Positions 31,487-38,881 of a stretch of DNA of 64,000 bases are shown here, one piece after another (the stretch's first letter is position 1; each line of letters opens with the position of its first letter). The stretch comes from an uncultured Candidatus Saccharibacteria bacterium (GTDB lineage: Bacteria; Patescibacteriota; Minisyncoccia; Phycocordibacterales; UBA2100), in NCBI GenBank assembly GCA_964654205.1, contig CAZZHR010000001.1, forward strand, positions 65,953 to 129,952, in the 5' to 3' direction. The position numbers and the translations under genes are program-made. The notes beneath the pieces are model-generated. The model did not search any database and had not been told where the DNA came from. It saw only the letters and a program-made list of their open reading frames with translations.

Positions 31487-31687
31487 CTAGTGCTGAGTCC
31501 TCCAAATTGCCTTTTGGAAGAACGCCGGCTCGCGATCCCAGACATCCGAGGAATCGGGTGATTCCTGAGGCTCCGAGATAGGTGCCGTGCACATCGTGCG
31601 CTGCTGTGCGTGGACGAGCGGTGTCGCAGCAACGACCCCGAGCGCCAAAAGCAACGCCATCTTTTCCCGCATGAGAGCTCCTTTCAT
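31487..31687 (-). CDS. Small exported peptide (67 aa; signal peptide plus ~40-aa acidic mature region with 1 Cys)
   Basis: MKGALMREKMALLLALGVVAATPLVHA signal-like N-terminus. A TTGACT promoter-like element lies upstream on the minus strand. Confidence 0.4.
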   Translation of the reverse strand: MKGALMREKMALLLALGVVAATPLVHAQQRTMCTAPISEPQESPDSSDVWDREPAFFQKAIWRTQH

Positions 31688-31771
31688 GCGAGCGGGCACA
31701 GTGCCACTGCGTCACTGTTACACCCGACCCCTGCTTGGGGCATACAGACCGTACTGCGGACAGCTGTGTCA

Positions 31772-31811
31772 GTCAACAAAAAACATAAGAAAGCCCGGCG
31801 GAAGCCGGGCT
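31772..31811 (-). terminator. Minus-strand rho-independent terminator (GCCCGGC-GGAA-GCCGGGC followed by a U-rich run on the minus strand)
   Basis: ~40 bp downstream of the 31849..32073(-) gene. Confidence 0.65.
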
Positions 31812-31848
31812 CAGTTAAACGAGGTGACGCAAGGTCCCTCGCGTGTCG

Positions 31849-36484: not shown

Positions 36485-36527
36485 GCTTGGAGTATACCCC
36501 TCTGTGCGCAAGAATAATTCCTGTACT

Positions 36528-37250
36528 ATGAGCGGCATGCAGAAGGGTTTTTTCGGTGCGTTCCACGAGGAAACTAAACGACAATGGCCTCCGAAGAGTC
36601 CCATTCCGTTTGATAGTCAGCTGTGGCCAGATGAGTGGAAAATCATACGCTATAAAACATACGAAAGGATGGAGAAAATACCGCTGTCTCACGGTTTGGT
36701 GGAGGCGGATCTATTCGCACTCATAAAGAATCGGCGGTCAAAGCGGGGATTCACTCGCAGCCCGTTACGTAAGGAACAATTGTCAATACTCCTTTCGTAC
36801 GGATGCGGATTGCACGGCACGCATCGGGCGCAGCCGTCGGCGGGAAAGCGGTATCCGCTCGAGGTGTATCCGCTCGTCGTCATTTCCGATGATGTGGCAC
36901 CAGGTATGTATCATTACGATGTGCGTGAGCACCGCCTCGACGTGCTCTCACAAAAAAATGTGTCGAGTGAAGACCTCTCTCGCTTGTTCACGTATCCGTG
37001 GGCTGGCGATATTTCTCTGGCGATATTCGTCACAGCGGTCTTTGAACGCAATTTCGTGAAGTACGGCGACAGGGGGTACCGGCAAATCTTGCTCGAAGCG
37101 GGTCATGTGGGACAGAATCTGTACCTGGTTGCCGAGTCTCTGCAACTACAATGCACCGCAATGGACGGTTTCATAGACCGGGAAGTCGAAAAGTTTCTGG
37201 ATATTGATGGGGTCACTGAGTCCGTGGTCTATTCGATGGTGTTCGGCTGA
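36528..37250 (+). CDS. SagB/McbC-type (nitroreductase-fold) FMN dehydrogenase
   Basis: 'LIKNRRSKRGF', 'PSAGKRYPLEVY' and 'GYRQILLEAGHVGQNLYL' nitroreductase-family motifs. Divergent from YcaO. The start is ambiguous (36528, 36537 or 36669). Confidence 0.7.
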   Translation: MSGMQKGFFGAFHEETKRQWPPKSPIPFDSQLWPDEWKIIRYKTYERMEKIPLSHGLVEADLFALIKNRRSKRGFTRSPLRKEQLSILLSYGCGLHGTHRAQPSAGKRYPLEVYPLVVISDDVAPGMYHYDVREHRLDVLSQKNVSSEDLSRLFTYPWAGDISLAIFVTAVFERNFVKYGDRGYRQILLEAGHVGQNLYLVAESLQLQCTAMDGFIDREVEKFLDIDGVTESVVYSMVFG

Positions 37251-38881
37251 CGACGTCTCAAGCAATACAGATCGTTCGCATGAGTCGGGACGTACAATAG
37301 TCCTGACGCGGGGTCGTGCGCTATCTTATTCACAATCCGCTCCGTGGCGGGGAAAATACCTAGCTCCTTGCCAGTGTCTTTGTCGAGCTCATACATGATG
37401 CCGTCGTTGCTGCCAACGAACACAGATTGGCCTGCGACATGGGGACTGGAGAAAACGCGCCCTCTCGTGCGAAACTTCCATGCGATTTTTCCAGTATCAA
37501 CATGGAAGCTGTAGACGTTCTTGTCAGTTGACCCTACGAAGAGTCGATCGTGATCGAGCGCCGGTGTCGAAAAAATCGGCCCCAATGTCTCAAGGGTACG
37601 GACTAATGTGCCGGTACGAACGTCGACAACGTGGACGTATCCGTCAAAGCATCCGAAAAAGACCAAGCTGCGCGAATCGTCAAATACACATGACGCCTTG
37701 ACTTCACTGCCAACGGAATATTTCCAGATGAGCTTCCCCGTCGATGTGTCAAGACAGTACACGTCTCCACTGTTGCTGCCGCATATTACAACACCCAGAG
37801 AGTCCGAGACAGCTGGTGAGGCATGAACGAGCGAGGGGATTCGGTACGACCAGCGCAACTTCCCCGTTCGTGCATCAAGTGCAGCGATACCGCCTCGCTT
37901 ACTCCATAAGCCGAATTCGAGACCGATGAAGACGGTTTGCTGTCGTGGGCTAACGCAAGGAGACGAACCGACCCAGTCCGCATCCCGGTACACCCACCGC
38001 GCCCGTCCATCCTGAACATTGAGTGCGTATACGTTGCCATCGTAGGCCCCAAAAAAGAGCATATCGTTTTCTATTGCTGGGGAAGAAAAGATTCGTTTCG
38101 CGCCCTCACCCAATAAAGTCTTGAACTCCCACAACGTTTCCCCGCTCGCCTTGCAGAAGGCGCGCATACGACCTCTGTCGTCCCCCATATATACACGCTC
38201 GCCATCGACTGCCGGCCCCGATTTTGGAAGTACATGAAAAAAATTCGCATCTTTGCCGGTCGAACGCCAGACCACTTCGAATACAAGCCGGTCGTGAAGT
38301 GCTCGAGGCGGGGTATCTTCGAGTCGTGCGGTTGGGAAATCAGACAACTCGAACAGTGAGAGTATTCGCACCCCCCGTTGTTCGAGCTCAGCATAGTACG
38401 CTCGTGCGCGAAAACGCAGTATCACGAATACCGCCTTCACGTGCAGACCCTCTTTCTCGAGGATGTTGATTTGCTTGAGAATGCTTTGGCCTGAATTCAA
38501 AATGTCGTCCACGAGGACGACAGGCTGCGAGTTCAGATCACCCTCGATATTGTTTTGTAGCCCGTCCTTATCCCGTGATTTGCGAATGTAGAATCCGTTT
38601 ATGTCGTGACCTGATTCTCGTCCTTTCAGTACGAGGGCGGTAATGAGGGGGAGGGACGCGGTCTCCATTCCGCCTACCTGAAACGGTGCAAGGGATTTGA
38701 TTTCCGACCAGGCGAGTGCGGTTATTGTCTCGAGCATCTCGCCGCGCAGCATAATCTTTCTGAAATCAAATATCCACTTCATGGGCATGCCGGAGGGCGA
38801 GACGATCGGCCGGTCGGCGTGCGTAGCGAACACTCGTGTATCTATCGCAGATCTCAACATCTCCTTGCGCGACGGTGCTTC
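37229..38881 (-). CDS. Fusion protein: N-terminal type-I phosphoribosyltransferase domain plus C-terminal PQQ-like beta-propeller repeats
   Basis: PRTase 'PVVLVDDILNSGQS' PRPP-binding motif. Six or more repeats of the 'G.VY..D..TG...W.' PQQ/BamB-type pattern. Start taken at MEAPSRKEM (the ORF extends to 38959). Confidence 0.65.
   Translation of the reverse strand, partial: EAPSRKEMLRSAIDTRVFATHADRPIVSPSGMPMKWIFDFRKIMLRGEMLETITALAWSEIKSLAPFQVGGMETASLPLITALVLKGRESGHDINGFYIRKSRDKDGLQNNIEGDLNSQPVVLVDDILNSGQSILKQINILEKEGLHVKAVFVILRFRARAYYAELEQRGVRILSLFELSDFPTARLEDTPPRALHDRLVFEVVWRSTGKDANFFHVLPKSGPAVDGERVYMGDDRGRMRAFCKASGETLWEFKTLLGEGAKRIFSSPAIENDMLFFGAYDGNVYALNVQDGRARWVYRDADWVGSSPCVSPRQQTVFIGLEFGLWSKRGGIAALDARTGKLRWSYRIPSLVHASPAVSDSLGVVICGSNSGDVYCLDTSTGKLIWKYSVGSEVKASCVFDDSRSLVFFGCFDGYVHVVDVRTGTLVRTLETLGPIFSTPALDHDRLFVGSTDKNVYSFHVDTGKIAWKFRTRGRVFSSPHVAGQSVFVGSNDGIMYELDKDTGKELGIFPATERIVNKIAHDPASGLLYVPTHANDLYCLRRRQPNTIE

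Follow-up and report, generated by a model that had tools for sequence, protein, structure and literature searches.

Which molecule do a YcaO cyclodehydratase and a SagB-type dehydrogenase act upon when both are encoded between two ribosomal protein genes, rpsJ and rplC, and no gene for a recognisable partner protein lies nearby? The question is raised by a stretch of 64,000 nucleotides from an uncultured Candidatus Saccharibacteria bacterium (assembly GCA_964654205.1, contig CAZZHR010000001.1, positions 65,953 to 129,952 of the forward strand), referred to here in its full length as the window. An initial annotation, made from the sequence alone, had described the pair as part of an unrecognised modification locus inserted into the ribosomal operon, without an obvious precursor peptide. 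We fetched the loci of relatives around YcaO homologues and clustered their open reading frames (ORFs); further loci came from relatives of a membrane protein encoded next to YcaO and from three context look-ups, and 143 loci in all were fetched (cited by number, L001 and so on). From this comparison, an 88-residue peptide encoded in the same interval is likely the substrate of the YcaO and SagB enzymes. We consider it rather probable that these enzymes form a linear-azole maturation branch, of the type of thiazole/oxazole-modified microcins (TOMM) or linear azol(in)e-containing peptides (LAP), that is joined to a larger envelope-peptide module conserved in the lineage.

The identity of the two enzymes agrees with the initial annotation. 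The YcaO protein matches PF02624 with 153 bits (E 1.3e-44; cut-off 25.7), and the dehydrogenase passes the SagB model TIGR03605 with 131.6 against a cut-off of 78.4 bits. By alignment with 23 homologues, the YcaO start was set at Met41 (position 36484) of a 546-residue ORF (34964-36604). In the resulting alignment of 24 members the GE..ER, E..QRDGF and C-terminal PHPFP motifs are invariant and TTNGAAGH and QRDG are conserved, as are, without exception, the residues for ATP/Mg binding (E184, E187, R188, E302, R306 and D307). A C-terminal PxPxP is the defining motif of YcaO cyclodehydratases. The N-terminal part of about 130 residues is a family-specific region, and homologues of about 510 residues form 27 clusters in the Patescibacteria. 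For SagB, the closest solved structures, as judged by PDB sequence matches, are those of CyaGox (the cyanobactin oxidase), McbC and BmdC; its KYG-x-R-x-YR motif is invariant in the family, and the protein was found in 30 of 35 related loci. The two genes diverge, as had been claimed, their starts being about 50 bp apart, and they adjoin the conserved peptide core described below in the window and in at least 21 related loci. The view that the locus serves peptide or protein modification by YcaO and SagB, and that no E1-like or RRE partner can be recognised in it, is supported.

The candidate substrate is encoded about 110 bp beyond the end of the region covered by the initial annotation, whose statement that no obvious leader-core precursor exists does not hold. 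The peptide has a basic N-terminus, a transmembrane (TM) helix, the junction KAFA↓DAPY (the arrow marks the junction) and a tail ending in GDGGCGCDGSDGSGGDGSDGG; its sequence reads MADRAVRTVKFFRILIAVVFSAIGIFVLAVLGDRKNDNLGSGFVDKAFA up to the junction and DAPYAQGSYFDEGGGAVAGDGGCGCDGSDGSGGDGSDGG beyond it. Including that of the window, we collected 42 such peptides, 41 of them from related loci, all encoded at the same position. In each of them a basic N-terminus leads into a single hydrophobic helix, followed by a conserved junction and a Gly-rich tail. The junction of the family, A-(H/Y/F)-A↓D-(A/V)-P, lies about 16-34 residues beyond the hydrophobic helix; its A-x-A pattern fits signal peptidase I, but this distance fits less well. 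The tails are rich in Gly, Ser, Cys, Asp and Glu, that of the window peptide in Gly, Asp, Ser and Cys. In the related loci a small, fast-evolving ORF almost always sits directly upstream of the gene for the membrane-anchored protein p391. Each of the 42 peptide genes precedes p391 in this way, many of them overlapping its start, and in the window the stop codon of the peptide gene overlaps or abuts the p391 start. Among public assemblies, only one (Logan) lists the 88-residue ORF as a gene. Between 28.9 and 43 kb, the intergenic gaps hold no other convincing short ORF rich in Cys, Ser or Thr. The initial annotation had named a canonical TOMM precursor together with a C-protein just outside its region as a finding that would speak against it. 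Half of this is borne out: a TOMM-like precursor does lie there, and a C-protein does not.

In three relatives (L061 9548-9859, L062 2417-2695 and L134 7581-7883), Tyr-rich repeats such as YYQSYYQ and SYYSQGNYY separate the junction from the Gly/Asp tail. A short version, YAQGSYF, occurs in the window peptide (39138-39170). The repeats resemble low-complexity Tyr/Gly/Ser motifs.

Several lines of comparison connect this peptide with YcaO. The peptide gene lies co-directionally and at most 100 bp downstream of YcaO in L019, L022, L030, L034 and L100, and the loci with two YcaO copies (L009, L010, L016 and L100) carry two peptides. Tails encoded beside YcaO are richer in potential sites, as judged by the per-locus maximum of Cys (Mann-Whitney p=4e-4), by the presence of two or more Cys (17/22 YcaO loci vs 3/12 others; Fisher p=0.0045) and by the Ser/Thr fraction (p=0.003), in tests that ignore phylogeny and in which several loci counted as YcaO-negative have short flanks. 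Gly precedes 56 of the 94 Cys residues in the tails, a feature known from microcin B17, though in a Gly-rich tail it is partly a chance expectation.

A number of observations weigh against the peptide as a TOMM-type substrate, as do the limits of the tests just given. All support for the favoured reading is comparative genomics. Some peptides of YcaO loci are free of Cys (L005, L008b, L009a and L063b), some peptides of loci without YcaO have one or two Cys, and under a strict filter the peptide is found in 21 of 38 CPR-type YcaO loci (CPR, candidate phyla radiation), several more being visible by eye. In the window itself, the YcaO and peptide genes are 2.5 kb apart, with the gene for a protein that we call the PRTase-propeller (PRTase, phosphoribosyltransferase) between them. 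A leader of the membrane-anchor or signal type is unusual for TOMM substrates and demands modification before export. On the side of the enzyme, the best NCBIfam model, that of the SagD family (TIGR03604), gives 177.8 bits and thus stays under its cut-off of 219.25, and the N-terminal 175 residues have no match among Pfam models or PDB sequences. Finally, in agreement with the initial annotation, no ORF between 28 and 43 kb matched an E1-like, ThiF or RRE model in Pfam or NCBIfam, so that a leader-binding partner was not found.

The peptide belongs to a block whose order recurs: rpsJ, variable tailoring genes, the PRTase-propeller gene (on the reverse strand), the peptide gene, p391, a TPR protein gene, p333, p158 and rplC. 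Ten loci share this order (the window, L001, L003, L005, L008, L010, L016, L021, L070 and L117), and because the proteins of these loci are only 35-50% identical to those of the window, the block, judged by its gene order, has been conserved in the lineage and was not recently inserted. The initial annotation was correct in placing it between rpsJ and rplC but not in calling it inserted or wedged into the operon, and we saw no sign of a mobile island at the block, with no tRNA gene nearby and an unremarkable GC content. In L061 the module is located upstream of tuf instead. Of the roughly 80 loci with the membrane protein, only 7 also have YcaO; the PRTase-propeller, peptide, p391 and TPR genes are often there too. 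Because most membrane-protein loci are without YcaO, the YcaO/SagB pair is, on this distribution, an optional add-on to the module.

Gene content varies between rpsJ and the PRTase-propeller gene, where YcaO/SagB, the membrane protein, the exported Cys-rich protein cys405, a PemK toxin or a transposase may be encoded. In relatives (L001 6957-7277; L003 8569-9468), the genes found between rpsJ and YcaO include one for a toxin of the PemK family, preceded by a small ORF, and one for a transposase of the rve family; this interval evidently tolerates gene gain. The conserved part is widespread, and the p391 family alone comprises 639 representative clusters at 50% identity. The PRTase-propeller, which falls within the region of the initial annotation and was left undiscussed there, consists of an orotate-PRTase-like domain fused to a beta-propeller of the PQQ/BamB type; it is a cytoplasmic protein without a signal peptide. 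It reaches 212 bits with PF13570 and 72 bits with the pyrE model TIGR00336 (cut-off 106.8). Its phosphoribosyl pyrophosphate (PRPP) loop, VVLVDDILNSGQS, is intact in the window and kept in at least 35 of 45 homologues; the fusion to a propeller is atypical for PyrE. With or without YcaO, its gene always diverges from the peptide-p391 pair, and it is part of the conserved core.

Other genes recur near the module in relatives. A fusion protein of about 640 residues with an AMMECR1 domain is encoded directly upstream of YcaO in L018, L019, L020, L022, L026 and L012, and multiple AMP-binding/CapK-like ligases of about 430-460 residues are present in L012-L014, L029, L032 and L062; both are absent from the window and may be further tailoring enzymes. 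A membrane-anchored rhodanese-domain protein of about 168 residues follows p391 in L003 (7725-8231), L010 and L016, and L022 has three tandem copies of it.

The membrane protein encoded next to YcaO had been likened to the HTTM/vitamin-K gamma-carboxylase family and described as translationally coupled to YcaO. Its start lies 1 bp past the YcaO stop codon, and because its N-terminus aligns with homologues, we regard both this start and the tight coupling as real. NCBI annotation is incomplete here: the membrane protein is given as 415 residues, and a 199-residue product clusters with YcaO. The likeness to carboxylases is borne out by predicted fold and catalytic motif and not by matches to the Pfam models. 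Human GGCX, the vitamin-K carboxylase, was the only strong structural match of the predicted fold, which comprises a TM domain and, as in GGCX, an extracytoplasmic beta domain; this C-terminal domain holds four conserved Cys. A Lys-x4-Trp motif is invariant in the family. When the family profile was compared with GGCX residues 151-310 (a segment verified against PDB), the sole alignment covered residues 202-227 and would place the invariant K186 and W191 on K218 and W223. In GGCX, Lys218 is the catalytic base and is stacked on Trp223, and the bacterial orthologue MloH carboxylates Asp (PMC12647623). Two members of the family have faint matches to VKGC_lumenal_dom (E 0.087). The family is large, with more than 605 clusters; most members have about 430 residues and are without the additional C-terminal segment of about 75 residues with a further TM helix (33421-33650) that is present in the window copy and in a few relatives (e.g. 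P0078).

Peptide tails encoded beside the membrane protein contain 19% Asp, vs 12% elsewhere (p=0.003, again in a test that ignores phylogeny). The same tails are nearly free of Glu (2%), for which reason classical gamma-carboxylation of Glu in the peptide was rejected. The scarcity of Glu also counts against a carboxylase more generally, as do the score of the GGCX alignment (6.4 bits only) and the failure to match the Pfam HTTM model (PF05090) at E<=10 for the window protein and at E<=1 for 22 family members. A search of PDB sequences with the family profile gave no match. Moreover, we know of no quinone synthesis in CPR bacteria, and no gene for a DCC1-like (PF04134) thiol-disulfide oxidoreductase was found in the window. 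In hidden Markov model (HMM) searches such genes were found beside the membrane protein in 11 loci, for example at L061 2347-2700, L062 9501-9926 and L063 1507-1929, and also in L084, L085, L090, L126 and L138.

Taken together, the gene content is consistent with the following scheme. In the cytoplasm, before export, YcaO would use ATP to cyclodehydrate Gly-Cys and Gly-Ser sites in the tail of the peptide, and SagB would oxidise the resulting azolines to thiazoles and oxazoles. Recognition of the substrate would proceed without an E1-like or RRE partner, a role in which the family-specific N-terminal region of YcaO may serve. The peptide would then insert with its N-terminus inside and its C-terminus outside, as predicted by the positive-inside rule, so that the acidic tail would be located outside the cell, where it could be bound by the membrane-anchored p391 and the TPR protein. 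Signal peptidase, or else a protease dedicated to the task, may cleave the junction. More speculatively, the membrane protein with the carboxylase fold may modify the exported Asp-rich tail by quinol-dependent chemistry, for which the nearest precedent would be the beta-carboxylation of Asp by MloH. The conserved place beside ribosomal genes suggests a constitutive role at the cell surface, not a sporadic antibiotic cluster. In its most extended form, the scheme would describe a housekeeping surface polyanion of CPR bacteria, in which the peptide is azole-modified by a partner-less YcaO/SagB pair and then beta-carboxylated on Asp outside the cell, with its tail held by two TPR-like proteins. 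We regard this extended form as unlikely. If the dual modification were true, the peptide would be the first with both azoles and carboxy-Asp, and ultra-small bacteria would gain, through the membrane protein, their first example of carboxylase-type protein modification.

Other substrates have to be weighed against the 88-residue peptide. YcaO and SagB could be unrelated to the Gly-rich peptide, with the rpsJ-rplC interval being a variable spot for accessory genes and the true substrate encoded elsewhere. The differences among genomes between rpsJ and the PRTase-propeller gene would fit this explanation, and so would the many membrane-protein loci that have the peptide module without YcaO and the intervening gene and distance in the window. 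It accounts poorly for the adjacent and co-directional YcaO and peptide genes in several distant lineages, for the matching copy numbers and for the enrichment of Cys and Ser/Thr in tails beside YcaO; moreover, where flanks were long enough, YcaO of this family was never seen far from a p391 or TPR module. We consider it improbable. The initial annotation preferred the secreted Cys-rich products as substrates, and indeed cys405 and a 74-residue peptide with 6 Cys are both Cys-rich (the Cys counts given for the two, 20 and 6, are correct) and encoded within 3 kb of YcaO, cys405 directly following YcaO in L005, L008 and L021. Homologues of cys405 were found in these three loci and in L063, L086, L092, L107, L114, L117, L124 and L125; six of the loci (L086, L092, L107, L114, L124 and L125) have no YcaO, and most YcaO loci have no cys405. 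The Cys of cys405 are regularly spaced in C-x-x-G repeats every 30-50 residues, a pattern suggestive of a folded domain rich in disulfides rather than of a core peptide, and to our knowledge a folded protein of 400 residues would be unprecedented as a TOMM substrate. The 74-residue peptide has no homologue in the 143 loci. Its gene has been called in both the NCBI and the Logan assemblies and is accompanied by a terminator-like hairpin at 31812-31791, and the product may be an orphan secreted defensin-like peptide. The small ORF p70, with a terminator-like hairpin at 31285-31258, has tblastn matches in L021 and L117 only, amounting to a homologue in one or two of the 143 loci. A Cys-rich secreted substrate is on this evidence very unlikely. 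The initial annotation also named a ribosomal or another cellular protein as an alternative target of YcaO. Such a protein could receive a backbone thioamide or an azoline, and this reading would explain the position in the S10 operon and its conservation. In E. coli, YcaO is linked to uS12 and is suspected of making the thioamide of uL16 (PMC7550191), and homologues of the window protein carry the Joint Genome Institute (JGI) label 'S12 methylthiotransferase accessory factor'. Against this, YcaO stays far under the cut-offs of TIGR00702 (39.4 of 75.65 bits) and of the McrA-thioamidation model TIGR03266 (63.1 of 365 bits), no TfuA was found with Pfam or NCBIfam among the ORFs between 28 and 43 kb, and the partner is a SagB azoline oxidase, with a PxPxP C-terminus on YcaO that is typical of cyclodehydratases. 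Most genomes that have the same block at the same position are without YcaO, and as sister genomes keep the ribosomal neighbourhood and the module without it, it is the peptide module, not YcaO, that is linked to the ribosomal genes. A ribosomal or cellular protein as substrate appears most improbable, and the 88-residue peptide remains the substrate we favour.

A further alternative concerns the membrane protein only. Rather than a carboxylase, it could be a quinone-linked oxidase or a thiol-redox enzyme, or it could, like SdpB, serve the maturation or export of exported peptides or proteins that contain Cys. B. subtilis SdpB is an HTTM-family protein that is required for maturation of the SdpC toxin. 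The four conserved Cys of the extracytoplasmic domain, the DCC1-like genes that adjoin the membrane protein in 11 loci and the clustering of Cys-rich cys405 paralogues with it all speak for such a function; the invariant catalytic Lys-x4-Trp motif of carboxylases and the neighbouring peptides, which are Asp-rich and often free of Cys, speak against it. We hold a non-carboxylase role to be possible though doubtful.

The features of the locus are listed in Table 1. Pfam and NCBIfam searches at permissive E-values returned zero matches for the membrane protein, cys405, p391, p333, p158 and the small peptides. Scans for promoters and terminators were at background overall, their useful yield being the two hairpins mentioned above. 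Three paralogous exported proteins that are Gly-rich or contain Cys are encoded in the window, namely the 596-residue protein and p333 (Table 1) and a third protein at 24001-24393 (+).

Table 1. Genes and open reading frames of the rpsJ-rplC interval, in window coordinates.
Feature	Position	Strand	Basis and remarks
rpsJ (S10)	28465-28914	+	PF00338, TIGR01049; upstream boundary
Exported Gly-rich protein, 596 aa	29389-31179	+	Matches PF21722 (Gly_rich_2); paralogue of p333
p70, ORF of 70 aa	31487-31699	-	Signal-like N-terminus; weakly conserved
6-Cys peptide, 74 aa	31849-32073	-	Signal peptide followed by 6-Cys cationic peptide; orphan
cys405, exported 20-Cys protein, 405 aa	32198-33415	+	Cys count; variable accessory
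Polytopic membrane protein, 513 aa	33421-34962	-	Predicted vitamin-K-dependent carboxylase fold
YcaO cyclodehydratase, 506 aa	34964-36484	-	PF02624
SagB-type FMN (flavin mononucleotide) dehydrogenase, azoline-to-azole oxidase	~36537-37250	+	TIGR03605
PRTase-propeller	37229-38884	-	PF13570, PF13360, TIGR00336; ORF could reach 38959
Candidate precursor peptide, 88 aa	38994-39260	+	Architecture common to 42 peptides of related loci
p391, N-terminally membrane-anchored	39257-40432	+	Predicted all-alpha TPR-like superhelix; translationally coupled to precursor
Membrane-anchored TPR protein, 260 aa	40448-41230	+	TPR_19 among other TPR models; kept downstream of p391 in 25 loci
p333, membrane-anchored Gly/Pro/Cys-rich exported protein	41217-42218	+	ORF cluster in 23 loci; fixed position before p158 and rplC
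p158, small exported protein with C-terminal TM helix	42222-42698	+	Directly upstream of rplC; kept there in at least 9 loci
rplC (L3)	42699-43436	+	tblastn to L3 genes annotated PF00297 in L003 and L005; downstream boundary, co-directional with the genes from the peptide to p158

YcaO/SagB clusters in CPR bacteria have so far been counted and not analysed, and the locus offers a concrete family of candidate precursors that share a defined motif at the junction. Azole formation appears to be an optional part of a module that is far larger and lacks annotation. The place of that module beside tuf, rpsJ and rplC across the lineage points to a constitutive function in the cell envelope; how these organisms attach to hosts, and their surface biology in general, is poorly understood. 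Independently of the peptide, the Lys-x4-Trp motif provides a sequence handle on a large bacterial family resembling vitamin-K carboxylases that is missed by current HMMs and whose candidate substrates are Asp-rich.

The pairing of YcaO with a nitroreductase in CPR bacteria is already known, and the term unrecognised, as used in the initial annotation, was an overstatement: Sharrar et al. (2020, mBio, PMC7298704) reported 110 LAP clusters from 93 CPR genomes, and in 89 of the clusters YcaO has a nitroreductase as its neighbour. Like the locus in the window, the clusters in Parcubacteria and Microgenomates combine YcaO with an adjacent nitroreductase and a small precursor containing Ser and Cys, of 84 residues in the published example. 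Unlike it, they are described at the antiSMASH level as YcaO, nitroreductase and peptidase, and the likeness of the precursors rests on description and not on sequence. None of three proteins of the module (the TPR-like partner, the PRTase-propeller and the carboxylase-fold protein) is mentioned there, nor are the junction motif and the rpsJ-rplC synteny. For these three proteins, for the synteny and for the precursor class we found no published account, and the other literature that we found mentions YcaO of CPR bacteria only in passing.

Pairs of TPR receptors and peptides of the RRNPP type (Rap-Phr, PlcR-PapR, NprR-NprX and AimR-AimP) differ from p391 and its peptide. The p391 protein is membrane-anchored and probably extracytoplasmic, it has neither a DNA-binding nor a phosphatase domain, its match to TPR folds is generic, and the tail of the peptide is of low complexity. 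With the GGCX and MloH carboxylases the membrane protein of the window shares the predicted overall fold, the Lys-x4-Trp motif and, putatively, exported acidic substrates, MloH having Asp as its target. It differs from them in its low identity (about 15%), in not passing the HTTM and VKGC HMMs, in the shorter length of its family (about 430 residues) and in the Glu-poor peptides beside it; its activity is a prediction. The partner-independent YcaO enzymes of the bottromycin type act without an E1-like or RRE partner, as is proposed here. They differ in that the bottromycin system has a follower peptide and no SagB, whereas in the window a region of about 130 residues is fused to the N-terminus of YcaO.

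The closest system is that of microcin B17, with the precursor McbA and the enzymes McbBCD. The locus in the window differs from it in having no E1-like McbB, no ABC exporter and no immunity gene, and in its conserved position in the core chromosome instead of on a plasmid. The window peptide also differs, with a leader resembling a membrane anchor or signal, the A-x-A↓D-A-P junction and a strongly acidic tail. Common to both are a YcaO enzyme paired with an FMN-dependent dehydrogenase of the McbC type and a Gly-rich core with Gly-Cys and Gly-Ser sites.

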